Part shown: positions 9,308 through 59,521 of the stretch, piece after piece | Numbering within the stretch: position 1 is the first letter of the stretch | Layout of the letters: each line of letters opens with the position of its first letter | From: Paraspadella gotoi | Taxonomy: Eukaryota > Animalia > Chaetognatha | Length of the DNA stretch: 64,000 nucleotides | Direction: 5' to 3' | NCBI GenBank assembly: GCA_051294375.1 | Contig: CM119263.1 | Coordinates: 19,930,115 to 19,994,114 of the forward strand | Translations under genes and position numbers: made by a program | The notes under the pieces: generated by a model | The model's input: only the letters and a program-made list of their open reading frames with translations | Told to the model about the DNA's origin: nothing | Database searches by the model: none

Positions 9308-12300
9308 ATGACGACAATGGAAGTCCCCGAAACGGAAATGATCGCGCGGATCGAATCCGCTGCTAAAGTGATGATGTCGCCCCCATCGATAGTCAGCAAG
9401 TAAATATAATTCAATGGGGGAATAAATTTTTTGAACTGAAAATGTTTTAAAATATATATTGTAATTCGAAGGGCACAGCGAACGGCGGCTGAGAAAGTAC
9501 TGCTAGACTTTCGTCAATCGGCCAAACCTTTCAAAGTCTGCTCCCACCTTGTCCAGCATTCCAGTAATGATTTCGTCCGATTCCAGGTACAACTGATTAT
9601 CTAATATCTATCTTTGAAAAAAATATTCCTGCTGTTTGTAATTTTTGGGTCCACTCTGAAATTGCGCTCTTTGCTTCTTCGAGGCTGTGTCGACAATGAA
9701 AGACGCCATCATTCGAGAGTGGGCCCTTTCCTGCGATGACGACATTCAGCAGCTTCTGTCTTTTCTCCTAGACTACGTCGTTAACCACGCCAATTCTCAG
9801 GCGAGTTTATTGAACCAAAAAGATTTTGAAAAGTTTTTACTCGACCAGTCAATCGATTTCTCTTTTCCTTTTTTAGGCGTACGTTCGTGAGCAAATACTG
9901 TCCACAATTGCGGTGGTTTTGAAACGCAGTGCCCTAGACAAAGACCCCTCTCGTTTCGCCGCTTACCGCAGCCAATTGTTCGAGAAAGTGGCGGAGCTGC
10001 TAAAGCATCCCGACGAAGCTTTGCGCATGATCGGATGCTCGGTTCTCGGCAATCTGCTAAACGAGTTCTCGTCCTCTTCACGGTCCTCGGCGTTGGGCGT
10101 CGCCTGGGATTTTCACACGGACGCCAAGGAGGCCTTCGAAAAACACGACTTGAAGGAGGTAAGCTTTGTCCTGGATGCTATCCGGGAGACTTCGTAGATA
10201 ATCTCCATTCTCATGATTTGAAATATCTATTTGTCAAGATTCTGACTCTAATCCTCCACATGCTGCATCGTCTCGACGAGTCTCCCCCGTCGGCCTCGAC
10301 CCGCAGCGTGGTCGTCTTATGGAATCGACTTTTGTCCCTCGTCGTTCAAATATTTAGCTGGGAATTTGTTAGAACTCAACCAAAAGGTCAGCGTCGTATA
10401 ACTTGTACGATTAATCAATTAATTAATAATCAATCATCAATCAATGTTAAACGTTAACTAAATTTTTTCTCGCAGCTCTCAAAAGACGATTCGGTTCCTT
10501 CGAGGCCACAGGGACTGTAGCCTTCCGACCTCCGCTCTCTTGGCGCCAGGTTCGCTTCCGTAAATAGGCGAGGTCAAATTTTTTTTTTTATTCAATAACA
10601 TTTTATGAATTCCAGCTTCTCTTTACGTCGTCATTGCTCAAGTTTTTGTTCAAGATTCACCATCGAGTAAGGCATAATTCCGAACTATGTCACCATTTAT
10701 TTCAGGTTTGTTGTTTCATTTATTTATTATTTCAATAATCATACAATGTAACATAAATTATTAGCCATGTTGTTACCGCAGTGCTTAACTCATCTGGCGT
10801 CATTGGGAAACCACATATCCATCTTCGCCAAAGACGATGATCAAGTGGCTTTCCTGAAAGACTTCGTAGAAGGAGTTCTCGGAATAATGCGGACGAGGTT
10901 GAAGCTGTTTTTGAAACATGACTCTTCCGAGCTAAAAATTTTGAAATCACTATCGTTCTGTGAAATTGGTCCAACCAATTTGATCGGATATCCATGCAAT
11001 TTAGTTACCGTGATCTTCTTTTCAGTGCCGTTCAAGATTACGAATCCCCTGGGCTTTCGTCTACGGTCTCTCAGCTTCTTCGATCTTTTTCTCCTTCTGT
11101 CTTTATGTCACTCCCGGGCGAGCTCTTTTCAAATTTCATCTACGGTTTGACACACCTAACGCGCCAGTTTGGTGCTCAAGCCGCGAACGAGGAGTCGGCT
11201 AATAAGGTCAGTGTAAAGGTATATTACGTAATCATAATAATGCAAATTCGAAAATTTTCGTCCTGATTTCGAAATCTCTCTTTGAGCAGGAAGATCATCT
11301 ATTCCTCGAGGGATACGAGACGCTTCTTCGAGCCTGGATGACTCTGTTGGACAACACCAAAGATTTCGCGCCGGCGACTTTTCGTCTTCCGGCGCTCGAC
11401 ATCGTCAATGGTTTTTTGCAGGTGCATCAAATATGACGTTTGTTGGCCTAAGATACCTCATTATTAATGTTAAATATTGTGAGTTAATTTATTTTGTTAT
11501 TTCGTTACCATTTTTCAGAGTCATCTTGCGCCCCCCGACGGAAATCGTGGCGTCGGCGAAAAAGCCGCGGAAGACGACGATGAGATCCAAGATGAAGACG
11601 GCGACGACAAGGAGAACATGAGGCGAGTTCAAAGTTTAAATTCGCAACAACAAACTCTTACTTCTTGTAGGCAAACGCAAACTAATTAGTACTTACTAAG
11701 TACGTACTATTTATTCACAGATCTCAGCTGATTTGTGTGGGAAAGTTCTTCCGCGAAGCCGTGGATCATGGATTGCCTCTTCTCAATCGCGTCCTCGACG
11801 CCAGAATCGTCACGTTTAAGTTGTCTATTCAACGCCTTATCAACGGCGACAACGCGGAGGCCCCCTCTGTGTTTAGCTTGTTCGAGGTTTGTACCAGTTA
11901 AACTTTACCATTTTTTACATTAATTGCTGGTAAGGTCGATCGTTTTCTCCAAGGATCTTCACTGGTTGATTCTTTTGGCATCGCACGCGACAGTCGAAGA
12001 GGATGAGGATTTTTCCAGCTCCTTCAAAGCGCTACCTTCGGCACCCATCCTAGAGCATCTCTCACACAGCGCTAAATCGGGCGCTATTGATGAACAAAAA
12101 ACCGCCGAGGTTTGGCGATTAATTTAGTTCTGCTTTTAATAGGGGTAGCCCAACTCAATAGGGTGAGTCAAAAATTTTGAGTGAGTACATTCTCAAACGA
12201 AAATTTATACACTTTTAAGAATACTTTCAATGGACAGAAAATTTTTAATATGGCTCTATACTCTAGTAATTAATTTTTTAATATTTATTTATAGATAGGA

Positions 12301-15300
12301 AAGGTTAAAAAAAATTTTTTTGAATTTTTAAATTTTAAGACCAGATTCAGATAGCTCATAAAAAGTTGTCTAATTGTGTAATTTTTTTCTCTTTTCGTTG
12401 TTCAATAAAATAGCAGATTCGAAAACAAAAGTTTTGGTATTTTTACAACGATTTTTATTACAAAGTATTGGATATGTTTCGACTCTTGTATTCGAGTCTT
12501 CATCAGCATTTGACAGTTGTATTTTTCACAATCATAAAGTTGGGGATAGAGAGAGTGAGAGAGAGAGAAAGAGAGAGAGAGAGAGATTCCAACAAAGAAT
12601 TGAGAAAGGACAGTGGTCAGATTTCAGGACAGGTGAAGGTAAGGACAGGATAAAATGTAATGTTTCTCTCTCTCTCAAAATCAACTTATTTGCCCTTTCT
12701 CCTGTCCTTACCTTCACCTGTCCTGAAATCTGACCACTGTCCTTTCTCAATTCTTTGTTGGAATCTCTCTCTTTCTCTCTCTCTCTCTCTCACTCTCTCT
12801 ATCCCCAACTTTATGATTGTGCAAAATACAACTCTCTAATGCTGATGAAGACTCGAATACAAGAGTCGAAACATGTCCAATACTTTGTAATAAAAATCGT
12901 TGTAAAAATACCAAAACTTTTGTTTTCGAATCTGCTAATATTTTTATGATAAGTGTATCAAAAATAATAAAAACCGTAAAAAAATCATCATCTTTCGATG
13001 ATTTTTTATAGTTTTTCTTATTTTTTACCTACTTCTCATAAAAATATTTAAAAAAGAATTATACTTTGGGCAACTTTTTATGAGCTATCTGAATCTGGTC
13101 TAAAAATTTAAAATTTTTCCAAAAATTGTTTGGCCTTTCTTATCTATTAATAAATATTAAAAAATTAATTACTAGGGTATATATTTTCATTTGAGCTTGT
13201 ACCTACTCTAAATTTTTGACTCACCCAATTGAGTGCGGCTACCCCTACGTAAGGGAGTGGTCTTTTCATACAATTGAAACATTCTTTGAATCATTATACC
13301 ACTTCATTGATAGGGAAGCCGGGTACTCTGGGAGTAAATAAACGCGACTGAGAAAGTCTTGATTGAAAGCTTGCAGGGACCTGCTATGTTAATATAAATT
13401 AATAAAAATTATCTTGTTAGAGTGATGGATGCCTTAAACCACCAAAGCCTGTCCAAAGTCAGGGGCAAGATAGCTTGTTTATTAAATGAATGGATAATTT
13501 TTATATTGGTTGTACCAATTTTATATTATATAGACTTTTTAAAAAATATTTAGATTTTGAGCGGCGTGACGTCTATGAACTGGTCCGAGCGCTTATTGGA
13601 GGATGGCGTTGGAGTCGACCCACTCGTTCGCCTGTTTGCATCACTACTTCATCTCTCGACCACTACTGCCTTCATTCTGAAAGTAAACAACGCCGTATAA
13701 CCCACCTGCTGACCTTTTGTTAAACTCATCACAATAGTCAATACATATTCTTTTCCCCTCAGTTGCCGACGGATAAAAATGAAGGTTCAGTGCGTCGCGC
13801 TAGCGAACTATTGTCCCCCGAAATCGCCTCCGATTTGTTCTATTTCTTTTCGAGGTGATTTTATGCGTTAATTCCATTTAATTTTATCTACAACTAGATT
13901 CACTTTTTTTTTCAAGGATGAGTCGTATTTATTTTCTCTATGATCTCACGACTTCGTTATCGTCACAATCCCAACCTGAATCTCAAAAGTCGCAGTTGCA
14001 ACCTCCGAAGTAACAACCTTTTTCGCACAAAAATACATGTTTTTGGAAAAAATTCTAAAATTAAATTTATATCCTTAATTTCCCTCAGAGTATTCGCCTC
14101 CACCTCTTCGACCGCTACGTTTATTCTCGACCTATTGCTGGACCATATCATCGCCGTCCTCGTCCACTGGTCTTCTGAGCCCCAGGTCGTGTCGGAAGCC
14201 GTCGCGCTTCTCAAAACTTTCGTGGATACTAAACTCCGAGCCGCATTCGTCGTTTCCAAATCGGCGAAACTGTGGGAACTCACGGAAATAGCCTGCAATC
14301 CCAAGAGTCGATCTCAATTAGCGGCCTCGCTCCCTGTTCAAGTCCAGGTCAGTTGACGGGTTAAAATTTTTAAGACGGTCTTCCCTTTTTATTAATTTGT
14401 CCCTTTTCTTTCTTAAGCGCGACCTAATGCTGTGCTTGACGCTTGTGGGTGCTTCGATTAGCGAGGAATCACTCAAGCAAAAGTATTGGCGCCATGTGTT
14501 GGAACCGATTCGGTCGTTGTTCCAAGGGATCGTCGATAGGATCCCCACGCCTGACAAGGCACGAACAGGTACGATTAACAAACGATGTAGATTAAAAAAA
14601 AATTGATTTGAATTTTACGTGCCAATAAGATTATATAAGATCAAAAGAAAACAAAATATTTCGGGAGATAACATTAGTGGCTTTTTAAATAAGCAGCGAT
14701 CTTCAGAGATTTGTCTCTCTCTGAGGTGTGTAACAAAATGAGATACAGGTTTACAAAACTGTTTTTGGTAAAGTAGAGCGGGGAAATTCGGAACAGGGGT
14801 ATTTCGGAACACTGAACACCTAAAATTATATCAAAAAAATAATTAAATATTTCACCAACTTGACTTTCCATTATCATTATGATAAGCGAGTTAGTTGTAT
14901 AGTATTTTTAAAAAATACAATTAAATTGTGGTAAAAGGGAACAGGAAAACGTTAAGTGTTCTGTGTTGCCTCATATGCTTTTTATAACGTGTTAGTGATA
15001 ATTTACTAAGTAATAAAAACATTTGTTAAAAAATTAGACGGAAAAAATTATTATGCTAATAATATTACAGTAAGAAATTCTATTTTATAAAAGTTTGTAA
15101 TGAAATTTAACGCCGAAATTAAGCTAAAAAATTAGTTTGAGACAAAATTAAGATGAAATTGATAAAAAAATATTAATAAAAATATTTGGAAAAGAAAATT
15201 AAAAATATAATAAAATTTAAAAGGATAAATAAAAATAATAAAAAAAATAACATGGGAAATAAAAAAATGGGCCAAAAACTAATAATAATTAGAAAGGAAG

Positions 15301-18029
15301 ATGGGGACGAAATGCCGGAATGGAAGGAAATAAAAAACTTGGTCAAAAATAATATAAATTAAAAAAATATATACAAAGTTTATATCTATTGTCATTCTAT
15401 AATTTTTGAAAAGTTAGAACTTAGTATTAAAAATCATTTTGCCCACTTACGAATATAAGATCTAAATTTTTTTATACATAAAACATTAATGAAAGTCTCT
15501 ACACGTGATGATAGCGGTTTAGTTATTATTTTCTGTAATATTATATTATATTATAAAAATATACATATATTAAGTGTTCCGAATTACCCCTAGGGGTCGC
15601 AGGATAAAAAATGACTGCATCAACCTGTAGCGGGGACACTTTCCTAGATATATCACTAGAAAAAAACTTTTTCAAAATATATTTACTATGTAAAAAATTT
15701 GATTACTCCCAAAAGTGTTCCAAATTTTTACTCTTTAACCTAAGGTTTTTACTCTTCCACTGAGGGAAAAATCCATTCTTCTAATTCTGGCCATCTCAGC
15801 CTTTAAATTTTAAAAGCTTGTGATGACCTTAAAACAAAAGGTTTCTTTCTTTTGTTGATTACCTTAAAGCTCCTTTGAAAACAGAAGAAAGAAACCCTTA
15901 GGTTTAAGGTCATTACAAGCTTTTAGAATTCAAAGGAAGAGAATAGAAGATATAGCCAGAATTAGAATGAATTTTAAGACAAATGAAAAGGTAGACACCT
16001 TATCGAAAACTGTTTTGTATATCTGTATCTCATTTTGAGGGAGACCGAGGTCTCTAAAGATTAGTGCTCATCTAAATTTAAATATAAATATAAGAATCAT
16101 ATTATCTCCCGGAATATTTTTCATTTTATCTTATTTGCATTTAAAGACCTAATCAATTTTTTTATCTACAACGAAATCTCCTACCCAAATTATGACTCTG
16201 AAACAAACAATTAACTAGCGCCAGGTCGAGGTAAGCCGGTTCGATGACTCTCATCATCCTTTTTTTTTCGCCTCGGATGACAGGAATCATTATTACCCAG
16301 TCCCGCTATCCCCTACCCTCCGTTGTCGTTGGCGTCTTGGAATCGCTTGTCGGCGTTGCCCTCTCGGCACGCGTCCATTCATTACCATGGTTGTTTGACT
16401 TTCTTTCTCCGATGATGGACCAGGTTTGTCCGTCGCAATTGAAAATAATTCGTTTGGCCCTGTAAATGGTTATTTAAAATTCTTAATTTTATTATTTCCA
16501 GTGCCCGTACGTTTTAAGTGCCTTCAATACTTCTCCTGAAGTTGTGGAACCCGTTCTCAGGTGATACTGAAGATTTCCATGGGTCTAAACCAAGAGCTTT
16601 TATAAGTTAGTCAATGGTCACTGTTACTAACAGGCTTGCCAATACTGTGGTTCAACATTCGTTGCCGTCCTTAAACGACACTCAAACGAACCGTCTCTAC
16701 CAAATTTGCATGGACATTGTTCAAACCTATTTTAAGCACAACGTTGGAAAACACTCGTACGAGTCATCTTCGGAAGATGAACAAGTAATTTAAAAATGGG
16801 TATCCCTTTTCCCCCTGAAATTTCACTCGTTTAACTTTGTTTTAATCTTTATTCCAGTTTTCAGATTTGTTCATTCTAATGGACCTGCTTACGAATCTTT
16901 TGAACAAAGACGTTCTCGATTTTTGGTCCGTTGACGAAAATTCTAATCCTTCTGAGCCGGCTTCCTCTGCGCCACCTGTGGTGAGTGAAGCCCTTTGTTT
17001 ATTTCTACCACGCGGTTCTCGAGGCGCGCTGCCATTGTATCCGCCGGTGCTTTTGTTATCGAGTCTATTATGGGTGAAGCCCTTCTTGAAGCCGGAATGG
17101 AATAAAAGAAAGAAATGCCTTCTTGGTTTTCAGATTTCTCGCCTCTCCTCCGCCGACGTCGTTCTCTGCGCTATTAACTTCGTCATTCCGCTCATGAACG
17201 AAGAGCTGTTAAAGTTTCCTCCGCTTTGTTCCCATTATTACAAGGTGCGACTTTTTTTAAAAAAAATTAAAAAATTGGATAATTTTTTAAAACGCGCTTT
17301 TAATAGAAAGTTATATTTTGTTTTTAATAGAAGTTAATATATTTCGTTTCCCCGTTTTTTTCGTCTCCTTAGCTTCTCCAATCTGTCGCTGAGATATTCC
17401 CAGAAAAAATTGCCACCCTCCCTGAAGAAAACTTTCGAACTCTTTTGAACACCATTAGCATGGGGCTGTCCTCTTTTGGTTCGCAGGTAATTCGGAAAAA
17501 ACCCTAAACTTACTGCATTTTTTCATCTCTCCTTAGTCTTATCTTTACTTTCTCCTGACGTCAGGTATCCAGCGCCTCGTTAACTTTTCTCGACGCTCTT
17601 GCTACTCATGTCGGCGATCCCTCCTCCATTCCCCCTCACGTCTTCTCTTCTCTTTCACCTTTTCTTACATCTCTCTTTTCCCTACTGTTGTTGGAACCTC
17701 ATTTTGACATGGAACTCTTAGAAGTTGCGTCACGCGCTTTTTTCGCTCTTATCACGCTTTTCAAGGTAAATAATTGTCCGCTTTGTCCAAGAAACACTAG
17801 TGAATTAAGTGTTTTTCCGGTTTTGAAGGACGACTACTTGCGTTGTGTTAACGAACTGCTGACCGCCCACGCTCACCAACCTCACCAACCACGATTGGTC
17901 GAAGCCTTTCACGCTCTCACGCCTCCCGATTTGCCACTGAGCGCCCAAAACCGAACTGCGGTTCTTACTTTTGTCGAAAATATGCAAAACTTTTTGCTCA
18001 GTGTTCGCGGGTTATTGTGCATGAAGTAA
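9308..18029 (+). CDS. XPO4: Exportin-4, many exons
   Basis: ESAAKVMMSPPS, FQ|AVSTMKDAIIREW, EFSSSSRSSALGVAWDFH, EDLHWLILLASH, IPLMNEELLKFPPLCSHYYK, C-terminal FLLSVRGLLCMK. Confidence 0.92.
12411..12937. repeat. Near-perfect palindrome (about 240-bp arms, 49-nt loop) nested in the MITE; probable inverted Penelope-like pseudo-LTR
   Basis: 12411-12650 is the reverse complement of 12700-12937 with few mismatches; each arm has a GA/TC tract and a hammerhead motif. Confidence 0.9.
12842..12877 (+). ncRNA. Minimal type I hammerhead ribozyme motif (mirror copy at 12471-12506 on - strand)
   Basis: CTGATGA-A-GACTC-gaatacaa-GAGTC-GAAA-CATG-TC: both core boxes, 5-bp helix II, palindromic short helix III, GUC triplet; helix I is weak. 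Confidence 0.75.
14700..16060. mobile_element. Foldback MITE (about 14700-14770 plus 15741-16060) interrupted by a second element
   Basis: AAAATGAGATACAG..CAAAACTGTTTT mirrors 16003-16060; 15741-16002 is itself an imperfect palindrome; removing 14771-15740 restores one continuous inverted repeat. Confidence 0.7.
14771..15740. mobile_element. TA-flanked TIR element (pogo/Tc1-like MITE) inserted in the foldback
   Basis: GGGGAAATTCGGAACA and GGGGTATTTCGGAACACT at left, AGTGTTCCGAATTACCCC (15573) and AGTGTTCCAAATTT (about 15714) at right; TA on both sides. Confidence 0.6.
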
Positions 18030-18441
18030 GAAATCCTGAAGACTTCTCGTTCGGGCTATGTTTTGCCCATGTGTTTTCTGTGCCATTTTCGAGTCGAATC
18101 AATGGGTACAGAAATTTTTGCCATAATTTTTTTTTATATTTGCTTATCAAAGAGCTTTATTTATTTACCGACCGAAAATTTCGAACTTTTTAACTGCGAG
18201 ACGTTGCGCGAAATTTTAGTCTGTTGTTTTAAACTTTTTTAACAGAATGATTTATATTTAAAAAGTATTTGCCAATAGCAGCTTTACTTACTACTTATAT
18301 TTAATAAATATTCATTGCCATTGTTAGTATCGTCTACTTATTGTTCACTAATTTTCAGTTTAAATATACTTGACAAACATCCTACGACAATTTAGAAGAT
18401 GCTTTGAAAGTAATCCACGCAGCATACTTGGATTTAAAGAA

Positions 18442-19430
18442 ATGGCATCAACGACGGTGTCGGACGTCACCAAAAGCTCCTTTTTGCTCACTATTGCCGG
18501 CCAAGTCGAAAGTGCCGAGTTTCCCGAGTTCGACGACATATTCTGCAAGTACTCTTTCGTCTATGGTCAAGACTGGTCCATAACTTCGGGACTCGAGGAG
18601 GGCATTACCCAAATCGCTAAACGTGGTCTTTATTACAACGAAACTACGCCCAAGTTTGTTTTTAACCACCCGTTGGACGTCTCTTTTAAGGTGAATCATT
18701 GTTATGTTTGTTTGAATGGGGGCAAGTGACGGTTAGTGATGATTTTTTTCTGGTCTATTTCAACGCTTTTTCACTTTATTTTTAGAGTACCAACCCTTTT
18801 GGTTGGCCGCAAATCGTCATATCGGCTTACGGTTATGACATTTTCGGTCACGACGTCGTTCGTGGTTACGGAGCAGGTCTGTTCGGAATCTCAAAAAAAT
18901 ATATTTTTCATCATTAATAAAAATTTTCTTTCATTTTATCCTTTCCCTCTAGTTCATTTGCCGATTTCTTCCGGATTGTATACCTTAAACGTGCCTATGT
19001 TCGTCCCTGAATCGAGGTAATCATTTTTTTCTCTGGCTGATCGTTAACTCTCGTTATACATAAATATAAATTAAACCTCAAATATTCTTATTGTGTTCTG
19101 TCAGTTCCTACATGCAAAAGATAACCTCGTGGTTGTTGGGGCGTAGACCGGAATTCGTTGACCCCAATGTCGTCGCTCAGGTACGATAAATATTGAATAG
19201 TTTTATCAATCTGTAATTTTTATCTCAACCCTCAATATAATCAGTCTTTTCCCCGCTTTATTACACGACCCTTTTCTTAGAGTGAAGGACGAGAGGTGAC
19301 CCGAGTTCGGAGTCAAGGATTCGTCAAAGTTAAACTCAACGTGTTAACGAAGGATATGAGGAGACTCGGATACGACGTTTTGCCGTCAGACGTTGCCACC
19401 TCTTCCACCCACGCTGTCGCGCGGGTCTAG
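18442..19430 (+). CDS. B9D1: B9 domain-containing protein 1 (ciliary transition zone)
   Basis: [71 protein letters not shown]. Confidence 0.95.
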
Positions 19431-19960
19431 CGAATTCTTTTTGTGGACTGAAACTTTAAAGTTAATTTACTTTCTGCAATTAACTATGTACTTTTGACGC
19501 AATGAGTGCTCGCCTTATTTTTTTTTTAATTGAAACATTCCGTCCAGTTTTACCTGTTTTACGAATTTACCTTACTTTTATACTTGAATATTTTTTTTTA
19601 TATATAGTAAACTAATTTCGTCGTTTCGGAAACTCTTAAACATTCGGAGAAACACACAAGCAACAAACTATTGTGCCGTCGTTTGCAAAATAATTTGGTT
19701 CATATCTTCTCCGGCAAAGGAGTTGATTTCTTCTTAATTAAAAACATTGCGTGAAGAAATATTCATTAGCCAACTTGGATTTAAAATTTCTGAGCAAGTG
19801 GTTCTATCTTGTAATCGCTTTTGAATTCACGAAATTTTCATTTGTGCTTTGACACGAGTAATAATCAGCGTTATTTCTGCCCACGTCCTGATCCTTAAGT
19901 TTTGATTTTAAAAATTCTTTGGTCGTTTTTGGTGGGACTATATTTCCCCCAAACCCAAAG

Positions 19961-21858
19961 ATGGAGGCCAACATGACGAAAAAGATCAAGGCTGTGATTA
20001 AGGCGAAGCTCATCGAACTGGAAGCTTACGTAAGTAAAGGAAATCCTCCTCCGTTGGTTTTAACTGAAAATAAGCGTAATCGTACATATTTGGTACATAT
20101 TTGCGTCGACAAAGATTTTAAGATTTAAGGTTTTGGAAAGAGTTTAGACTTTCCTTTTTTCATTCCCTTCAATTTTCTAATTTTTGTTAAAACTTTTTCC
20201 CCCTTCCCCTTCATCTCACCCTCTCCTGAAACAGGTCGACGACGAGCTTCCAGATTACATAATGGTGATGGTCGCCAACAAAAAGACACAACCGCAGATG
20301 GCCTCGGATTTATCTCTCTTTCTCGGTTAGTTGATTTCATGGGCCTTTGCGAGGTCCTCACGATTGGCGATAGCGGCGCTCAACGCCGCCTTGTACGCCT
20401 AATATTAGTCGATGGGTCCAGTGGTTCGGCGTCAATTGCGTCGTCGATTTCGCCAAAGCACAGTCGACGGCTTCCGCAGCCACCGATTAAAATCGCTTAG
20501 GGATCCAGGATCGAGGGGCAGAGGTTTCAGCTGCCGTTTGTTCTATACATCTTCCAGGAGAAGACGCTGACAGATTCGCTGCTTGGCTCCAACGGGTCCT
20601 CAACAAGATTCAGAAGATCTCGGAAGCGAAGAAGCCCGTCGCCGGTAAAGAAGGCTCGAAGAACTCGAAGGAAGAGGTTTCGAAGACGCCGACGTCGATC
20701 AAGAAAACCGACAAAGAAACAACGCCCATCGTCTTCTCACTCAAACCGCGACGGCCAACGTCCAAGGAACCGTCGCCGGCCCCAGCCACCCTTTCCAAGA
20801 AGATTGCCATCAGCCTAAAGAAGAAAATTGAGATAAAAACTAAGTCGCAAGCTTCGGACATTGACGCCTCCCCCGCCTCCTCCGCCCTCTCTCCGCGAGG
20901 CGATACGCCCTCGCCCGTCTCAACAGCGACGCCGCGTCAAAACTCCCCGCCGCCCCGAACACCGACGCCTGAGTTGGCGTCAGACGCTGAAGATAGGAAA
21001 AGAAAGGCTTCTCGAGTAGACGCGAGCGATGAAGAGGCGGAGAGGAAGAGGAAACGGGAGACGGAACCCGACTCCAGAAAGAGCGAGCGGCAAAATGACG
21101 TGGAAGAGAAGGAAAAGAATATTATCCTTATCATGGAACAAATCAAAAAGTTAAAAAATAAACTGGTTGAGCGCGCCGAAGAGTCAGCCAGCGATGAAGA
21201 TGACGACGACATGAGCGACGTCATTCGAGATAAGATCACGACATTGAGAAAGAGACTCGAGAGCATCCAAGAAGACTTGGCCGAAGAAGAGGAAGAGGAA
21301 AAAGAAAATAATAAAGAAATAGAGAGCGAGACGACGAAAGAAGGTGAGTTATCTTTAAACGGCAATTATGCAGAAGCCGTCGATATAAACGTTACTAAAT
21401 CCGTGATTGTTTTGTCCAATGAAGCCTCCGAAATCTCGCCAAAACCGACGATCAAAATGGGGAACGTCGACACTCCCGAAGGAGATGGACTCGAGAACGA
21501 ATCGTTGGACTCTCGATGCACGACCCCCGTTCTGGATGAACTCCCGTCGCCGCAATCTCGCGCGACTTCGGAAGACCTTCTCGTCGTCAACATGGAGACT
21601 AAAACTGCTCCGACGACGTTAGTTCACGACGACGCCGAGGCTCTCCAACGCCTCCACCTCCCCCTTTTTCTACTCTCCGCAGAGGACCATCGTCAGTGCG
21701 TCCACTGCAGTGAAGTCGGAGCCGCGGTGCTTTGTTCCGGGTGTCGCGTTGTCCTTCACTGCTGCGCGGAAAAGAACTGCTTCCGTTCGTTTCACGTCGC
21801 GGGATCTAATTGCGACGAGAGTCAGAGGCTCGAAAGCATTCCCATTAACATTCGATAA
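19961..21858 (+). CDS. Protein with ZC3H14/Nab2-type N-terminal PWI-like domain, acidic low-complexity middle and C-terminal Cys/His domain
   Basis: KKIKAVIKAKLIELEAY|VDDELPDYIMVMVANKKTQPQMASDLSLFL|GEDADRFAAWLQRVL; exon 3 (20558-21858) open to the stop. Confidence 0.8.
20341..20540 (+). ncRNA. Candidate structured intronic RNA, family unknown
   Basis: GC-rich intron with many stems (GGGCCT/AGGTCC, GCGGCG/CGCCGC, GGGTCC/GGATCC, GTCGA/TCGAC, CGATT/AATCG, GGCAG/CTGCC). Confidence 0.4.
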
Positions 21859-22289
21859 ACTTAAAAACACCGTTGTTATTCGAACTTTTTTTCGATTTGG
21901 TGATATGAACCAATTTCTTTACCGAATTACTGGAATCTAGATTTATTGTTATTTCGTTTCCCAGGCTGTTTCAATTACAAGCGTCTGTTATAACTGGAGA
22001 ACTAACGTTCAAACTCCGTACCATTAGAATTAGTTAAAATTAATTTGAATTTCACTTTCTTAAAACTTTCAAAACCTCTGAGACAAGTTTTGTTTCAGGC
22101 TAAAACTTTCGCTTGTAATTGGAACTTTCTGTTATTGTTATTGCTTTTAAAGAATCCGAAGAGGTCCAGTTTGTGAATAGTCATTAGTCATCCTTTTATG
22201 GTTATAATGTTTTTTTCAATAATTATCGTCTACTTTCAGGTGTTGCCATATTATAGTGCCTTTGGTTAAACTATATGATAAACTTATAA

Positions 22290-30040
<7,751 letters not shown>

Positions 30041-30276
30041 TCGACTAGGCTTCGATGGACGTGAAGTGGCCCGTTATTTTCTTTCTAATTCCATCGTCTG
30101 GATCGTTTTCATTCTATTCTAGTCTCACACTGTGAATCCCACATTCCTTGTTTTATTGTGATTTATAGTCATAGCGCCTTAGAAAGTCATGTGTTATAAA
30201 CGTCATAGGCAAGAATTTTATCATAAAAATCTCGTTAATTTAGCACTTTTAAGTACACGTTCAAAAACTAAAAACA

Positions 30277-30983
30277 ATGGCGGTGTGTCTCGCTGTTATT
30301 AGCAAGGAAAATTATCCCCTCTACATAAAATGCAGCTCACGGGAGAACGAGCTTAATTTTCATTACACAGGTGGGCAACTTTTTACAACTGATTATTTTA
30401 TATTTATATTCTCCAAAATGATTTTTTGTGAAACTCATTTTTCTTAGTTCACACCTCTTTGGATGTTGTGGAAGAAAAAATTACCGCGGGTAGTAAAAAT
30501 GCAAGTGATATGCGAGAGCTGTACCTTGGACTTCTCTATCCAACAGAGGATTACAAGGTTTATGGTTATGTGAGTAATACAAAGGTAAGTAATTTTAAAT
30601 AAATTTACCAATTTTACATCATTTTAGCGGTGACTATTAATATTAATATTCACCCTGTCCTAACGTCTAATCCCTCACCTTTTAGATCAAATTTGTTATT
30701 GTTGTTGAATCTGCTAATGTTGCGCTACGCGATAATGAGATTCGATCTATGTTTCGTAAACTGCACAACGCCTACATGGACATGATATCCAACCCGTTTT
30801 ATTCCCCAGGTGCCCAGTATTTACTATTTTATATCTTATAAAATAGATGCTCTAATACTTGCTTTTTCATTTAATTTTTTTCCTGCATTTCTTTTTATCG
30901 ATGGCGCAGGCGAAGCCATCACCTCAAAATCATTCCAACGAGTCGTCGGGTCCATGCTTCAATCTCCAAGCCCGGGCGACTGA
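30277..30983 (+). CDS. TRAPPC2L: Trafficking protein particle complex subunit 2-like
   Basis: [68 protein letters not shown]. Confidence 0.95.
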
Positions 30984-31417
30984 TGCTTTTCTTTGCTCCA
31001 GACTCTCAGACTAAAGCATTTTAAAAAAAGGACACGCTTATCGTTTATCGTGAAGCCTCGTTCCTTTTCATATTTCCAGATCAAATTTGTTATGCTTTAA
31101 AAAAATACGATCGATGATTTTATTTTATTTTATTTTATCTTTCACTCTCTCCTGGTGGAAGATACGGCAGTTTCCCAGCGCTGTCTGGTTTCTGTCGAAT
31201 TCTGACTGGAAAATAGAAAAATGTGATAATCCGCGAGATTTTTGCCCCCAATCTCTTCAGAGCGATGAATAAATAAACTAGTCTTACGAGGCCTGTGGGG
31301 CCCTCGGTGCTGATTCTCGATATGTTCACAATTATTTTAATTGTTAATTCTTTGTTCGAACAACTTTGTTACAGTTTTTTCGCCATTTTTAAAACTATTT
31401 TTTAAAACGAAGGAAGG

Positions 31418-32179
31418 ATGTCTTGGGACGCATATATCGACTACGTCAAGGGTTGTTCTGCGAACAAAGTGATCACCGAGGCGGTCATTTATTCTAAAGA
31501 AGGGTCACCATGGACACCGGAAACGGAGAACCTCAAGGTGTTCAAAACTTACACATTTTAACGCAAGAATAAAATGTTTGTTTTTGTAAAGTTTTATCTG
31601 CGCCGCGTACTTGTGCACAATGTGCTGTCGCGTGATCTCCTTAAAAATCGATCACATGACTAAAAATTCATTACTAAATAACTTATAAAACACTAGTCAT
31701 TTTATTTAATTCTTAGCAGGCCAATAAGGTATAAGGAAATGATTTTATTTCATTGTTATGTAGTCACGTAATTACCCGTAAATACACGTTCTTGGTTTTT
31801 TTCGGCGACTCTCCCGCCTTTGACAGGCCCTCGACGCCAAGTGCGCTTCTACGATTACTTCCAAAAAGCCAGATTCGATTACCATTAACGGCGTCAAGTA
31901 CATGTATTTGCGGACGGTTGATGAGGATGAGGCCTACCAAATGTTGTGTGAGTTGAGAGAAGGAAGGGCGCTAGATGCTCAATGGAAAGATTCTAAAGTT
32001 TTGTCACTCCATCCCCAACCCCCTCAGACAAAAAGAAGGATGTCGGTTCACTTTGTGTCGCGGTGACGCAGAAAGCGATCTCTATCGCCTTCACGCCTGA
32101 CAACCTATCGTACGCTTCGGGAGAGGCAAACCAAGCCTCGCAGGAGTTATGCAAATATCTCTTAAGCGTAGGATACTGA
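31418..32179 (+). CDS. Profilin (divergent), 3 exons
   Basis: MSWDAYIDY.., ITINGVKYMYLR, GSLCVAVTQKAISIA, C-terminal LCKYLLSVGY. Confidence 0.85.
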
Positions 32180-33499
32180 TTCCAACATCCTATGCTGACC
32201 AAAGAACAACAAACACCTAGAGGTGCGACGATTTCAATTGAAATATGGAACTCTTAAGGGCTCAAGTTTCGTACCTTTTAAATTATTAATTTTTTTTTTT
32301 TTTTTTATTGAATTATAAGTTTTTCTTCTTTACTATCAGTAAGCTATAAGACTACATGTTGCTGACGTCGGAAAATTTCTTACAATTTGTAAGAATTTTA
32401 TATTTTTTCAGGAGTCGTTGTGGATTGGCATTAATCAAAACAAAGACAATGGTTGTTAACGGCTTCCCTTAATCTTCGACCGTCGCAGGCTGAATCTGCC
32501 TTTCATCAACGAATCGAGTTCTATTTATTTCCAAGGAGTTTTTCTTTTTTAATTTTATGCCAAAAAAAAAAAAAAAGCTGTGAAATTAGGTTTTTTTTTC
32601 GCTAATCCACGAACGGTTCCAATTAATAATGTTCACTTTCCTATTTTCTTGTAAGATCATGTCAACCTTTCAAACTTTTTTATGGTGATACTGTTAAGTA
32701 ACCAAAAGTATAAATTAATTTTTTCCTCGATACGAATAATTGAAATTATTCTTTGGATAGTTTCGCTTTCAAGTTTTACGACGAAGTATTAACGTTTTTT
32801 ATGAAAATATCATTCCTGGAGGCGATTAAGGAGGATATGCAAGGGAAAATAAACATCAATTTCAAAGTTTCTAGTTCAGTTATATAGCCCGTTTCAGCCC
32901 ATTGTTTTAAGCTATGGGCCAACTAGATTTTTGAGACCAAAAAAAATTATTTTATAAGCATTCTGTAATTTAATAGCTCGTTCCATTTTTTAGTTTTATT
33001 ATTCATTTTTTGAGAAGAATGAAAACGAATTTAAAAAAAAATGATTTAAAGAGAAGAACAAAGTTTCCTTGTTAACAAACAACGATTTTTATTTCAAGAA
33101 GAAACATGTTTGTACTCTTGTTTTGCGATCTTTCATCAGCTCATTGTGAAAAAGAAGCGCAAGGCATCTTTCCTAAAGGATTCTTGCTTGACCCAAATCT
33201 TACCAACTCGGCTCCACAATCCTGTCAGCCTATGACCAGAACCCATCGGTCATGCCTCTCAATTGTCAAACCGATTTTTGAGCTTTTTCTTTATCTTAAA
33301 TTTTCTCTTTTCTTCTCTATCCTAGATCTGTTTCACTTTTTCACCATTTCCATTTTCACCAATTTAGTTGAGATTAAATATAATTTTAAGTCTTTTAATT
33401 TATTATTGTTGTTCATTTTTCAAATGTAATGTTTTCCAAATAGTGTCTCCTTCTCCATTCCAACTTACCTTATTTGATTTCCCTTAAATATCCTTCAAT

Positions 33500-33630
33500 C
33501 TCTCCTGTCCTCACCTTCAGCTGTTCTGACCACTAACAACTGACCTTTCTCAATACTTTGTTGGAATCTCTTTTTTTTCACAAATCGCTGATAAAGACTT
33601 AAAAAGTCGAAACATGTTTGTTTTTTGTTA
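33500..33630 (+). mobile_element. Decayed relative of the 12700-12937 arm with a mutated hammerhead core
   Basis: CCTGTCCTCACCTTCA..CCTTTCTCAATACTTTGTTGGAATCTC matches the palindrome arm; CTGATAA-A-GACTT-aaa-AAGTC-GAAACATGTT. Confidence 0.7.
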
Positions 33631-34085
33631 CCAAAAACCTTTTTTTCTCTCTCTTAACCTACAAACGCAACTAAAAGAGTTAAATATGCTATGCTTTACT
33701 TTATTTTCTGTCACACTGGGTTTTTTCCCAATTTTCTGAACTTTCCTTCTAATCTCATTCTTTTGTTATTTTTTATATTTGGTTTCTAATTAATAAACAG
33801 AGCGATACCAAAAGCGAGAACGAAATTATACCTTTGTAGCTATAATTTAATTTTACCGCGAGAGCAATTTGCCATAGATTTATCCGAATCTAGCTAAATA
33901 AAAATTTATAGTGATATAATTCTCTTATATCTGTCGATAATAAAGCATGAAAAACGCTTGATTGCAGAGCAGAGCTCTGGCTCTGTGAAGAAAATGATTC
34001 GAGCTTCTAAGCGTAACGCAGAATGTGACGCTATCATGAAAACGAGCGAAAACATCTCTCGCTAGAGCAGAAAACTCTTGTCAAA

Positions 34086-37000
34086 ATGGAGGGTCCCAAC
34101 TCGTCCCTGCACATTCCTGAGATGGACAAGTATGGCCCGCCAATATTCAACGAACCCGTCAGGGAACGAATACAAGGAGACGTAAGTATTTCTATGCATC
34201 AATAATTTTTAATTAACCGGTCTCAGAAAAGTATTATAATTAAAGCCATAAGTGATAAGACTTATTTTTATTTTTCGGAAGAGCAGTTTCAAAATCTATG
34301 ATTAGTAAACCAGCCATTTTCATCATAATTTTTCTTGTCCGATGATAGCACTTCGTTTGCGCCCCAAAGATTATTTACTTAAACGTTAAATGGAATCGAG
34401 AATTTCCTTCATACTAGATAATGACATGCTGTTTTTTCGAACCGAGAATATTTTTTCTTTTTTTAGTTTTAAACAGTTGTATAGACGTTTATCCATTTTA
34501 CAAACGTTTTTCTTACTACCGAAAAACTTCATGAACATCAGCGGTTCATGCCAGTTACATCAATTTTACATCCAAAATGTTTTTTTATCTCGCTAGACGG
34601 GCGAATGCCCGACTTGGGCGAAATGTTAATTCGTTTCTGCTTCTTTTGACCGTTGTAGTCGTCATCGTCGTCACGCTGTTTTAACATTGAATGTAACTTA
34701 AGTGTGTAACCATAGGAAGCTAAAAATTTAGATATAGCTTCCTACACTCAATTGTTTGTTTTATTTACAAAACAATTTTTATATATATAGACGAGTTTAG
34801 CTCTTAAGCTCTCTCTTAATTATATGTCGCTCTTTTTTTCCGTTGCTGTTTCTTCTGATTCGTCTAAAATCGAGTTGAAGCTCTGCAGCGGCTGTCCAGC
34901 TTCTATCTTTTTTTTTCTTTCTCTCTCTCTCTCTCTCTCTCTTTTTCTTTCTCTCTCTCTTTTTCTTTCTCTCTCTCTTTTTCTTTCTCTCTCACTAATA
35001 CATACATTGAATGACTCATCGCATCAATAAATGACTATCATCGCATCAATGAATGACTTATCGCATCCATGAATGATAGAGCTCCCAGAAATACCATGCA
35101 TTTTATAAAGTTACTGATACCTGCAAAGTTTCTTGTGCCAAATTTAGTGGAGAACACGAATATAACAAGACAAAATTTCCCTGAATGCTCTTGATAGATT
35201 TTCCACGCCAGTTTTTGTTTCGTACCCATTCCGGTTTTAAAAAATCAGAATTTTTGGGAAAAAATGAGCTGTTATTCAGCCAGCATACTTAAATTCATCA
35301 AAATAAAGTTAGTAAAAACCTTATTACTAAATTTTTTGTTGTAGTTTATAAATAAGGTTCAAAAATTAGAATTACGAAAGATTTCAAATTAAAAAAATAT
35401 TAGTTTTTTTAAGCCAAATCGTCCCTGGCCAAATTATTCTACAAAATAAACCAAACAAATAAAAACAGAATTAAGACGTTAACGTGAAGGAAAACAAAGC
35501 TACGAGATCATTTCTATATTTTCATAGAAATAAGACAAAACTTTACTTTTTGTCAAAGTTAAACGTTTCAATTACTATTATTACTATTACATCAATCAAA
35601 CAAATAGTATTACGTCAATCGATTTTTATTATATCAATTATTCATTATGGCATCAATCTTTTTTTTTTTTTTTTTGATTTTTTCATTATATTTTTAAGAT
35701 TTTTTTTATGTGGTTTTTTCATCATTGCTACTGATGTGGCTCATAAATGAAACGGAAAAAAAATTATTTAGGCTTTTTTCTCTCCCTGGGGGTTTTATCA
35801 CTGGCCCCTGTATCTCATCTCAGTGGTTGAATATCAAAAATCCCCTTAAGTTTCATTTGTACAGCCAAAGTCTACCTTCATGCAGAATTTTTTTAAAATT
35901 TGATCAAGTCGTTGGTTCGGAACCGATTCTCGGCTCTAAAAAACGGCGTATTATTTTCTTATATGTAGACCAAATTTAATTAGCTTTAGTAAGACAGTTT
36001 TTGCAGTTAAGGTAGCTTTTATGTAGTACATTAATTTAACGTTTTCACGTTTCCTCGACACCATCGATATTCAGGACATGGGCTTTCCCATCAAGTCTTT
36101 GCATCCTTCCTTCGACGCCGCCCCAGCCGGTTGCCACATGGAGGAGCAGTCGATGCGACAATCCGCGCCTGAAGCGCAGAACGCTCTGTCACCCCAGGCA
36201 GCGCTTTCTCCGCAACCTCATGAGCAAGAAGATGTAAAGGACGTTCACGAGCAGGTTGCCGCAGCGGCTGCGGCGGCCGCGGCAGCCGCGAACGCTAATC
36301 AAGCTGTCGCCTCCGCCGTCAACCCAACCGAGGAAAACGCCAAGACGCATCCTGTAGAAATGCAGGAAGATGAGGAGCAGAAGATGATGGTCGACGGCGT
36401 CCTGTCCAAAGTAGGCGTTTTTTGGTGAGCGGTTCGAAAAACAAAATTGTAGTGATATCATTTACCTTAGGCAAGCTACCGTTGCCCTAATTGCCCCTAC
36501 ATTGGGGGAAGCCTTTCCGACGTGAAGAGGCACGGTTTGGTTCACTCTGGCGAGCGACCCTTTAAATGCCACCATTGCTGCGCTTTGTTCAAGCAGTCCA
36601 ATCACCTTAAGAATCATCTGCTGACCCATTCCGGAGAAAAGGTGGAACACTTGGACTTTATTTTTTCCAATGTCGTTTTTGTGGTCTATGGTAACCGCTC
36701 AGTTTACCGTCCGTCCTCCTCGACAGGCCTACAAATGCTCTCAATGTGGCAAAGGCGCCTCCACGCCCTCCAACCTCAAACGGCACATGTTGACTCATCG
36801 GGAGAAGTTGAAGTGCGTCCAGTGCACCTACACTACGCCTGATCCGGCGCATCTCAAGTCCCATCAGTTGACGCATGGCACTTTTAAGTGCGGCATTTGT
36901 CAGTTTTCCACCACTGAGGTAATGCCTCGAAATAATGAATTGATTAGTGATTGAAATGATTCGTCTCTACCAAAGCCTCGATCTATTTAGGCAACAATCC

Positions 37001-44928: not shown

Positions 44929-47900
44929 ATGGCGAAATTCGAAGGCTTTCTACCCTCGTATGAAAAGGTGAGTAATCTGTTTGGTTAACCCACTCTTTTG
45001 CTGTTATTGATCTAGTTGATTCTAGTTATGTCCTTCGCCAGACGACGTATTACCTCGGACGAGGAATGAAGCTCTCTTGGGCCGTCGTCGTCGTAATCGT
45101 CGTCGCCATCGTGATTTCCAACTACATTCACGAGATCTCTTCCCTGGAGCTGGAAAACAACGATTGCGACATCTGCCAAGGCATGCCTTCCTCGCGAGTC
45201 AAGCAAGGAGAAGGTCATGCGTGCACCGTATTGGACGACAATTTCGTCGGTGAGGCGAGGGGAATGTCGGTGAAAATACATCTCTGCGTAAAATATCATT
45301 TTACTTTGATTCGTTTTTTGTCCTTCAGTCAAGCAAAACGGATCGAAGAGGACTTTGCTGGAAGTCTTTTGCCGTAAAGGGAGGCGACCCTTTTTGCATC
45401 AGTTTTACAGCACGGGTGAGAGAAACAGTAAAATCCCTCGTCACTCTTGATTGATCGATCGAGTAAATTATTTCTTTTTAGTCGGATCAGCATATCCCGA
45501 CTCTATAATTCACTTTGTCGGCCCGGCGGTCCGCCCCCTCAATATTGTCGGGCACACACTTATATCATGTCAAAACATCTAATTTTGATAAATTATGCAA
45601 AAAAAATAATGTCCGTCCGTCCGTCCGTCCGTCCCACCTTAGCAAAAAACACCAATTACTCGTGATTGGAAGGATGGATTGGAATGAAATTTTGTGTGCG
45701 GGCAGGGAAGTGTGTGATTGGATATGAAGTTTCGATGGAATCGTCCCAGTGGAAATGAGTTTAAATGGAAAAAACAAAAAAAATATATTTCACTATTTGA
45801 ACATGAGTGGATTGGGCGATTGACCTTGAATTTTGTATGTGGGTAGGAAAGTGTGTGATTAAGCTGGAAATCAAGTTTCGATGGAATCGAAATGAGTTTA
45901 AATGGAAAAAAACAAAAAACCTGTTTCACTAATTGATTATGCTTCTTTTTCCTTTTATATTAAATGTAAATACAGGATGTATTAATTAATAAAATAATTA
46001 ATCAATTAGTCAATTAATCAATAATTAATCAATCAGTCAATCAATCAATTCAATCGTTATCGGCATTATTCTCATCGTCGTCATTGCTTTTGTCGTGGTT
46101 AGTTACGAAAAGACATAAAAACAAACATTTGGGATCAAATTAATTAATTAATTGCCTAACTGACATTGTTTGCTCAAACTTGTTAATATTTAAATGTCTA
46201 CATGTCTAGGCAATCTCGACGTGCGGTGCGAGTCCGACGACTTCGAGGTTCTCTCCGGCGCCAACGCCTCCGAGGTGCAGCGCGAATTCGCCAAAATGTG
46301 GGGAATTAAGCTCATAAACTATCCGGCCTTTCTCAAGTCCAGGTCTGCGTGAGTCTCGATTTCGAAATCTTCCTCTCGTCTTTTTTTCTCCCCTTTATTA
46401 GCGGTAGCCGACCAAATTTAAATTTTAATGGAAACAGCATTAAACGAATAGATAATTGGTCTTAGTTATTGTGTTAAAATATTTTTTTGCAAAAATGTTC
46501 TGAACCATAAGCAATTCGTTAATTAAAATTATTATAAAGCTATATAATGTCAAGATTTTTTGGGATATTTTAAATTTTTTAAATTGAATCTGTTAGAGCT
46601 TAAAAAGTTAAGCAAAAATTATAATTACAACTTTGTAAAATTTTGATGTTTTAATACTGAAAATTAATAAATGATAATGATGAGAATGATTTTTTTAGGT
46701 TTTTGCCAATTTTGACCCACTTATCATTAAAATATTTGAAAAAAAATTATATTTTGTGTAGATGACTTTTTATAAGCTATCTGAATCTGCTTTTAACAAT
46801 AAAAAATTCAAAAATGTTTTGACATTTCCTATCTATAAATAAATATTTAAAAAAATAATTACTAGTGCTTCTAGCCATTTTAGAAAATTTTGGTCCATGG
46901 AAAGTTTTCTTAGAAATGTATGAAGTTTTATTTGGGAAGGTTCCCAAATCAAACTTTTGACCCACCCCATTGACAAAGTTTGGCCCTACCTTTATTCAGG
47001 CACCGACTCTCGCCTTTTAACGACACTTGCAAGGGCCTGGTACATCGCGATGTTTGTTGGGTTGCCTACTCTTATCATCCTCTGGACGTGCAGCTGGTCG
47101 CCATGTTCGTATTGGGCCTCTTTCTCTTCCTCTCCGCGGACAACTTGTCTAGGAATACAGCGCTGTTTTACTCTTCCGGCGTCGGTCAGTCCCAGCTCGA
47201 GAAATGGGGGGAGGGAAAAATGGTGAGAGGGTCAGTGGAACGCGAAATGGCCCACCTTTAGATTAAATATTTTCTGTTTCGGTCCGATTTAGGTATGGGC
47301 GTCTTCATGTCTCTCATTATCGTGATGTTGGTACTCACTCGGTTTATGTACAAGCGAAGTGGTTTCGTTCTTGGTGAGCAGTATTTTAAAACTCAAATTT
47401 CATTCGTGAGTTTTATTTTTCTTTATTTAATTACACGTTTTAGTTATGATGTTTGGCTGGTCTAGTCTCGTGTACTGCCTAACTCAGCTTTACAACAACC
47501 TTGCATCCATTTACGAAGCTTATCAGGTTTGGTTCCAGCGCTATAAGAATCTTGTCGTCATAGACATAGTGAATTGTATAGTTTGATTCGATTCGATTCT
47601 TCGACTCCAGACGTACATCGTCGCCTACACAACCGTTACGGCTTTCGGGTCCTTCGCCGTATGCTACAAATGCGGACCTCCTTCGTCTCCTCGTACGTTG
47701 GATTTGATTCGATGGACCGTCCAATTCGTCGGATGCCTGCTAATGTTTCAGTCCAGTCACTTGCCACCGTTTTACAGGTTAGCGCTCGCAATTAAATAGT
47801 AATCGATTCATTTTGATCTCAAAAGTTTTTTTTTCCCCATAATATTGGAGAGCTACTTTAAAGAAGAGCAAAGACTTAGAGACATCGTCGACGTAATCTG

Positions 47901-56031: not shown

Positions 56032-56649
56032 TAGAGTGGAGCACTGGGGTACATAAATTTTATTTGAGTGATCAAACAAGGATATTTAGACGTGAGATAA
56101 TATGATTAATGAGTATAAAAAATATTTTGCTTATATTGTTTGGGGAACAGTATCATTAATTACAATATATTTATAATAATATTCTTATAAAATCATAAAT
56201 TTTCAAAATAATTTTTTAAAATTTTTATTAAAAATTCTGATTCTTCATAAAAAGTTAGATCAAAAATATAAAATATGTTATAAAAAATTTCAATGTCTTC
56301 AGCGTCAAAAATGAAAAAAAAGGTTAAATTCTCTACTTTTTTATACTTTGTAGTAAAAACTATTATATGATGAAACATTTTGGTCATTTTTCGCAGCTTT
56401 AACCTAAAAATATCATGTAACATATTTTACAAAAGTTTTTCAGTTTTTTCCGGCGAATCCAAAACTGTACTTAAAATTAAAAAAATATGATTTTAAAATT
56501 TTATAAGGATATTATTATAAAAAAAATTTAATTAATGATACTGTTATGCAAATTTTTTTTGAAAAAGGGCTTAATTATTTTATATTACATATATAAAGGC
56601 AGCAAAAAAATATTGTTTCATCGCTCAATCTTTTCATCACTCCACCCTA
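56032..56649. mobile_element. hAT-type MITE
   Basis: TIR TAGAGTGGAG/CTCCACCCTA; exact 8-bp TSD ATGAACAT at 56024-56031 and 56650-56657; internal inverted repeats. Confidence 0.85.
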
Positions 56650-59039: not shown

Positions 59040-59300
59040 GAATGATTGATGTAATAGTAATTTATTGATGTAATAGGAATTGATTATTGATGCGATGATA
59101 ACCAATTCTTGACGCGATGATAACCATTAACCAAATATTGATGCGATGATAACCAATAATTGATGCGATGATAACCAAATGATTGATGTGATAATAACCA
59201 AATGATTGATGCGATGATAGTCATTCATTAATGTGATGATAATCATTCATTGATACGATGATAGTCATTCATTGATGCGATGATAGTCATTCATTGACAC
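59040..59300. repeat. Minisatellite of about 19-21-bp units (ATTGATGCGATGATAACCA-like)
   Basis: Read directly; lies between about 68-bp direct repeats at 58971-59038 and 60141-60209. Confidence 0.85.
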
Positions 59301-59521
59301 GATAAATCATTCATCATAAATAAAACAAACAAATGAGTGTATGAGTGAAAGAGAGAGAGAAAGAAAGAGAATAAATCCACGAAAATCTCGGATGTAAATT
59401 TGGGATTTTGTATTGAGAAAAAAGCGCGGAATAAATGGCGATAATAAAAGTTTTTAAAAGTTTTTAGAAGGAAAAAAATAATCAAAATCTTTCAAAAAAC
59501 TAACGATCACGCTAGAGATCG

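Follow-up and report, generated by a model that had tools for sequence, protein, structure and literature searches.

The closest described counterparts of the motifs considered here lie in Penelope-like element (PLE) ends. A typical Penelope insert is described as pseudo-LTRs (pLTRs) next to which lies an inverted pLTR, together with a 31-bp tail at one end and a 9-bp target-site duplication (TSD), the head-to-head arrangement being the one seen most frequently (PMC3846280); an inverted, 5'-truncated copy and a tail of 30-40 bp are likewise given as common in PMC8557442, which calls the function of the ribozyme unclear. In metazoan PLEs, minimal type I hammerheads (Cervera and de la Pena 2014, PMC4209133) have an extra base after A9 and a palindromic helix III, occur as opposite-strand pairs 100-700 bp apart, and are reported in that article to be without activity as monomers and to have low activity as dimers; a review agrees on the dimers and on the low rates (PMC6765202). 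For Poseidon PAc of Anolis carolinensis (Frangieh et al. 2024, PMC11167929), two reverse transcriptase (RT) start sites bound the tail and both strands of AT-rich DNA are cleaved; the ribozyme depends on the protein, insertion in vitro proceeds without the ribozyme, and no reads ending at its cut site were found. Metazoan retrozymes, a further class of hammerhead-bearing repeats, are defined as tandem repeats (PMC7229834), and a 2026 preprint describes them as depleted from Xenopus introns, with 1 of 9 dimers cleaved (bioRxiv 10.64898/2026.07.22.740005). As regards ribozymes placed in introns, slow ones leave splicing unaffected and fast ones affect it, and cleavage of an intron need not block splicing (PMC10274809 and PMC4410947, cited second-hand).

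We analysed a 64-kb window of Paraspadella gotoi DNA (the whole stretch, in whose coordinates all positions are given), along with nine public sequencing runs of the organism, in the form of contigs only, and metagenome contigs. Scans and self-BLAST of the window gave seven copies of a hammerhead-like motif at four loci, A, B, C and D/E. Six cores were recovered by a relaxed scan, at 12842(+), 12506(-), 22773(+), 22567(-), 25927(-) and 33588(+); the seventh, copy E at 33139(-), was found by self-BLAST through its likeness to copy A (77% over 66 nt, E 1.4e-6). Hammerhead-like cores at these four loci had been proposed in the initial annotation, and all six that it named were recovered, that at 33588 with the CTGATAA reported for it. 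The positions needed some adjustment: 12471, 22529 and 25888 are the low-coordinate ends of the motifs whose cores start at 12506, 22567 and 25927, and 22770 marks where helix I begins for the core at 22773. Moreover, the 33588 copy, which had been taken for a solo one, has the decayed 33139(-) copy 449 nt away, head-to-head. The sequences of helix II differ and yet pair at each locus, exactly as had been stated. The palindromic nature of the helix III stub held in part: ACATGT is indeed disrupted only in the 12506 copy, but the AATATT assigned to locus B is out of register with the core.

These motifs are real and exceed chance. A strict scan for the core and helix II returned 4 matches, compared to a mean of 0.33 and a maximum of 3 in 200 dinucleotide shuffles, and the subset with a palindromic stub comprised 2 matches, compared to a mean of 0.005 and a maximum of 1. 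Profiles made from the copies detected no further copies in the window at significant scores. The hammerhead family was absent among the 35 Rfam matches to the window (E up to 1); the miRNA and snoRNA matches were rejected as hairpin artefacts with scores under the model cut-offs. Since, in addition, the six isolated motifs fold no better than shuffles (z-scores of -1.84 to +0.17, not significant), the case for the motifs rests on a conserved core combined with a changing helix II, and not on energy.

One family comprises copies A, C, D and E; in alignments, the far end of the longer A arm is shared with C and D. Copy B represents a second family, whose core has an extra base. Both A copies and C have the CUGANGA and GAAA core elements, the G10.1-C11.1 pair of helix II and the extra base after A9 that characterize minimal hammerheads; D and E have decayed away from this consensus. 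The energy of the stub self-duplex is -6.0 kcal/mol for the A sense copy and for C, -2.4 for B and +0.4 for the A mirror copy. The likeness to the metazoan PLE motifs of PMC4209133 extends to the short helix I, the palindromic helix III stub, the variable sequence and the occurrence mostly as single copies or as opposite-strand pairs 100-700 bp apart. Family B differs from the motifs described in the passages of PMC4209133 that were compared by having two bases at position 7 (CUGAACGA); its stub is four bases long. In the B copy itself, the core with its extra base reads CTGAACGA, and standard hammerhead numbering makes ATAT its in-register stub. Most of the differences listed among other B copies are in loop II or further downstream; one copy is altered at G12. 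A full-text search of article text found no literature description of the CUGAACGA core.

The motifs very probably sit in short, 5'-truncated ends (pLTRs) of two PLE families, and their mirror layout very probably comes from the insertion reaction rather than from host selection (Table 1). The assignment to PLEs, whose pLTRs the initial annotation had named, beside metazoan retrozymes, as sites of such hammerheads, is a structural one and is well supported by features seen directly: the head-to-head arms, the one-sided tails, the duplication and empty allele at B, the sequence shared by A, C, D and E, and the many other copies in the genome.

Table 1. Features of the hammerhead-bearing loci and of the introns and repeat that contain them
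Feature	Positions	Strand	Remarks
Locus A, host intron (predicted, Exportin-4-like)	12110..13553	+	GT..AG, frame open across join
Locus A, MITE-like inverted-repeat element hosting the insertion	12138..13250	.	sister copy near 46520-46996
Locus A, one-sided tail, ~21 nt	12390..12410	-	from alignment; profile match reaches 12390
Locus A, left arm, host-antisense	12411..12654	-	hammerhead 12506-12471, helix III stub mutated
Locus A, spacer and right arm, host-sense	12655..12937	+	intact hammerhead 12842-12877
Locus B, host intron (Sec23)	22373..22897	+	spliced GT..AG joint in run X9 contig; tblastn agrees
Locus B, left TSD, 13 nt	22423..22435	+	13-nt direct repeat
Locus B, one-sided tail, 33 nt	22436..22468	-	carried by high-depth contigs; other copies end here
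Locus B, left arm	22469..22664	-	hammerhead 22567-22533; 196 nt, 100% complementary
Locus B, 11-nt loop and right arm, Sec23-sense	22665..22869	+	variant-core hammerhead 22773-22807
Locus B, right TSD, 13 nt	22870..22882	+	13-nt direct repeat
Copy C, solo stump	25812..25941	-	hammerhead 25927-25893, antisense in Sec23 intron 25716-25957
Copy E, decayed	33039..33152	-	hammerhead from 33139, head-to-head with D
Copy D, A-family stump	33421..33678	+	hammerhead 33588-33618, G8-to-A core (CTGATAA)

At locus B, an empty allele was found in a 2786-nt contig of run X6, which omits 447 nt (22422 to 22870) and in which 13 letters fit both sides; the insertion is therefore recent and polymorphic. Pieces from runs X5 and X8 enter the element by 25-28 letters, the bridging threshold being 31 letters; the insertion is likely present in both runs, at a level below this formal threshold. 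The two ends of the element lie 97 and 132 nt from the cores. Other copies of the B family end either at 22426-22437, on the side of the tail, where at least five distinct flanks occur, or at 22870-22874, on the side without a tail, as judged from the best 24 of the 61 rows of loose ends. Among the four joints listed for B, one is the empty site, two fit copies turning head-to-head elsewhere, one is ambiguous and none is tail-to-tail. The turns join 22547 to 22756 in all four runs (with a short side of 23 letters) and 22570 to 22776 in X6. A short hairpin is present at the inverted junction of B (22660-22682), and the sense copy of a second locus likewise begins at 22667 (loose end 22582 in X8), which may be the natural 5' end of the element; the hairpin and the shared starting point together fit fold-back priming. 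Note that run X9, from which the splice joint was taken, is only guessed to be RNA, and that contigs cannot reveal cleavage ends. As both the nature of X9 and its genotype at B are uncertain, the spliced Sec23 contig is no evidence that the insertion-bearing allele splices.

Locus A has the same head-to-head organization, with arms that are 96.7% alike over 244 nt and ends lying 96 and 117 nt from the cores. The tail beyond the left arm is element sequence that copies C and D also carry at their far ends, and the spacer (12655-12695) is element sequence as well, common to D. The sister MITE is without 12390-12935 in the alignment; this inverted-repeat family is represented in the window at 12138-13250, 46520-46996 and 56139-56552. 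A 10-nt near-duplication at A was rejected as a TSD, both half-sites being present once in the sister MITE. The exon at 9877-10194 matches Exportin-4 (5dlq_B, E 8.9e-16), and the predicted splice is absent among the spliced joints listed from the run contigs. Only the host-antisense arm carries the stub-destroying change, the host-sense copy being intact. The exact A core had no match in the metagenome contigs. The frame opened by an ATG within the A core is short, and B is without ATG at that position.

Copy C ends abruptly just upstream of its core. The joint of its intron (GT..AG) was read from an X9 contig, among the best 15 of 680 joints, and tblastn agrees with it. A contig of X6 over C (25407-26234) differs by 27 gap letters and keeps the length of the element, so that C is not an empty site there. 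Upstream of its core, copy D is 84% alike to A over 77 nt; copy E retains CTGATGA, and its helix II and GAAA are broken. D and E are flanked by a profilin gene and a zinc-finger gene. Over the cores of A and C, contig depths added up to ~32,000-36,000, compared to 33-44 for unique contigs (run X1), and over B to ~200-340, compared to 8-19; contig depth is not a copy number, and we take these values only to mean hundreds of copies for A/C and tens for B.

Several hallmarks of Penelope insertion are thus found in the window. An inverted, 5'-truncated copy joined head-to-head is present at A, at B and at other B-family loci, and the hammerhead lies inside the pLTR. Compared to the usual 30-40 bp, the one-sided tail is of typical length at B and shorter than typical at A. 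A 13-nt TSD in AT-rich DNA, with an empty site, is found at B; the search for duplications gave none that was clear at A, C or D/E. The likeness is closest to Pen2a_Av of Adineta vaga (PMC3846280) and to the inserts of PMC8557442 (Fig. 2), which have head-to-head inverted ends of ~200 nt and a one-sided tail of 20-35 nt; inserts of the Pen2a_Av type, as described, also share a TSD in AT-rich DNA, a short junction palindrome (as at B) and insertion into another repeat (as at A). They differ in that here no ORF lies between the ends and the TSD is clear at a single locus. With Poseidon PAc (PMC11167929), the window copies share ends ~100-130 nt downstream of the core, two classes of ends bounding the tail, an AT-rich target and a ribozyme that is uncut in the inserted copy.

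A Penelope master carrying an RT and a GIY-YIG domain, for which the initial annotation had proposed a search, was not found within the window, either by a motif scan or by Pfam on 30 of the 275 candidate ORFs, and the link to a PLE master is accordingly by structure only. Two candidates were rejected. A putative GIY-YIG remnant between E and D (33150-33278) gave 2 matches, both to translations of tandem repeats, with a query that had no Pfam family; an open-ended ORF at 60572-64000(-), considered as a PLE, encodes an ABC transporter. The latter frame is uninterrupted over at least 1143 residues, whereas the other genes are intron-rich.

A degenerate core yielded 45 metagenome loci, which contained 22 pairs of motifs within 1 kb, 5 of them removed as duplicates. 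Among the pairs with motifs at least 80% alike (n=9), 8 were head-to-head, 1 was tandem and none was tail-to-tail, so that near-identical pairs on opposite strands were all head-to-head (8/8); among the less alike pairs (n=8), 5 were tandem, 2 tail-to-tail and 1 head-to-head, these loci possibly stemming from few genomes. We also scanned 42 ORFs from the 45 loci (11 of 53 were left out as duplicates of overlapping loci), two of which gave weak RT matches. Only locus L010, which overlaps L019, has fragments of a PLE-type RT and of GIY-YIG, and it has them beside a hammerhead with a different stub, so that the metagenome loci give no link between the ACATGT type and a PLE ORF. The region in question (L010:1032-2500) has a decayed RT on the minus strand and a GIY-YIG motif followed by the hammerhead on the plus strand, and resembles a 5'-inverted Penelope, a presumed label based on sequence motifs and the weak Pfam match to RT. 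At another locus (L026:1089-1833), a solo hammerhead lies 230 nt from a 7tm_3 exon, on the opposite strand; this single, unannotated case has the direction predicted by the initial annotation.

We propose the following course of events. The endonuclease of the element would cut AT-rich DNA, and reverse transcription would begin either ~95 or 115-130 nt downstream of the core of the hammerhead, the choice between these two sites giving a tail-less or a tailed end. Reverse transcription would stop early, truncating the copy, and the inverted copy would be written by fold-back or second-strand priming, the ribozyme travelling uncut within the inserted copy. Once inserted, single minimal hammerheads would hardly cleave, palindromes would hide them further, whichever of the two strands is read, and neutral decay would wear down the old copies (D, E and the A mirror). 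The ribozymes are thus probably silent in host transcripts, first through the weakness of single minimal hammerheads and second through masking. Indeed, the predicted probability of helix II was 0.78-1.0 for isolated motifs or single arms and dropped to 0.0 in both palindromes, whether the plus strand, the nascent transcript or the minus strand was folded.

The initial annotation had read the placement of the motifs as selection for ribozymes unable to cut host pre-mRNA, from three observations. The first, that each sense intronic copy is preceded by its own antisense arm, is true, and masking is predicted; it holds, however, on both strands of any head-to-head palindrome, so that A and B would look alike whichever way the host gene ran. 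The second, that the solo intronic copy C is antisense, is correct. The third, that the broken core at 33588 fits selection, does not follow: selection of this kind does not predict a broken core in a copy that the initial annotation itself places between genes, where no transcript needs protection, and the antisense neighbour E is broken too; decay explains the breakage of both. With A and B symmetric and D/E broken, only C is informative (1/1 antisense, p=0.5). The head-to-head layout is, moreover, the default PLE product. In this window, selection against pre-mRNA cleavage is unsupported rather than refuted.

The best argument for an orientation bias comes from the host-antisense direction of the two arms with a tail, at A and B, and of the solo copy C (3/3, p=0.125). 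This does not single out the ribozyme and is also expected from a general antisense bias. Antisense bias is generally known for intronic retroelements, and upstream of the core the sense strand is rich in pyrimidines; an intronic bias caused by other signals of the element (pyrimidine tracts, splice or polyadenylation signals, a promoter) and not by the ribozyme would account for the three main or tail-bearing intronic copies. We regard this explanation as unlikely, given the p-value and the fact that both palindromes still place a full sense arm in the intron, but it is compatible with PLE insertion and the two can be true together.

It is considerably less probable that the ribozyme itself is what counts, that is, that solo sense copies are purged from introns because they cut the pre-mRNA while antisense copies and self-masked palindromes persist. 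None of the three intronic loci has an unmasked, intact sense copy, and the predicted masking of the palindromic sense ribozymes is consistent with such purging, as is the finding that fast intronic ribozymes lower splicing (Fong 2009, as reported in PMC10274809); the depletion of retrozymes from Xenopus introns, as reported in bioRxiv 10.64898/2026.07.22.740005, also speaks for it, and we counted it against an explanation by insertion alone. There is, however, a single informative locus; the palindromes are masked on either strand; and the damaged arm in A is the host-antisense one, with the host-sense copy intact, which counts against selection. In addition, minimal ribozymes are described as inactive as monomers (PMC4209133) or as needing a protein of the element (PMC11167929). 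We found no published orientation test of PLE hammerheads in introns in the literature searched.

Finally, non-LTR retrozymes, which resemble the window copies in having a type I hammerhead in a short non-coding repeat (PMC7229834; bioRxiv 10.64898/2026.07.22.740005), or a self-standing palindromic mini-element moving as a unit, with which the lack of an ORF and the perfect, recent and TSD-flanked B unit would agree, are a most improbable explanation, since the seven window copies are inverted or solo minimal ribozymes, none in head-to-tail tandem, and have neither the tandem monomers nor the canonical helix III that define metazoan retrozymes with their active canonical ribozymes in the sources cited, and since the differing turn points of other B-family loci (22547, 22570 and 22582) indicate that the palindrome is made anew at each insertion.

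Under PLE insertion, the window holds a PLE footprint of the ordinary sort, in a new invertebrate. The modest value of this footprint lies in a clean, recent and polymorphic insertion, with filled and empty alleles, TSD and tail, and in an unusual core that can be assayed cheaply. Were only intact solo sense copies missing from introns genome-wide, this would point indirectly to cleavage of RNA in vivo by the minimal hammerheads of PLEs. We consider it improbable that two things hold at once, namely that sense-intronic intact solo hammerheads are missing genome-wide while fold-back copies are tolerated, cleavage thereby filtering PLE insertions, and that the CUGAACGA core with its four-base stub is a working variant.

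As for the setting, eleven genes with family matches lie within 2174-48340, all on the plus strand and some only a few hundred bases apart, in a genome that is compact. Their families are WD40, Dus, Exportin-4, B9, Sec23, profilin, C2H2 zinc finger, ribosomal L5 family, DUF4097, ELAV and NEMP. The survey covered the same 30 of 275 candidate ORFs, mostly on the plus strand, so that genes on the minus strand are possible. The same-strand run could be operon-like, which would blur the sense in which D and E are intergenic. Among named Sec23 proteins, the closest are those of molluscs and annelids (84-85% identity), environmental proteins reaching 93-97%, and ELAV behaves alike. Intronic repeats of very high depth were observed at 24795-25430 and 45486-46060 (with internal units of 140-156 nt) and at 13246-13525. 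The window also contains a 24-nt tandem repeat within an open frame (803-1054), a hairpin with 63-nt arms (15794-15942) and a 22-nt tandem array (59053-59311).
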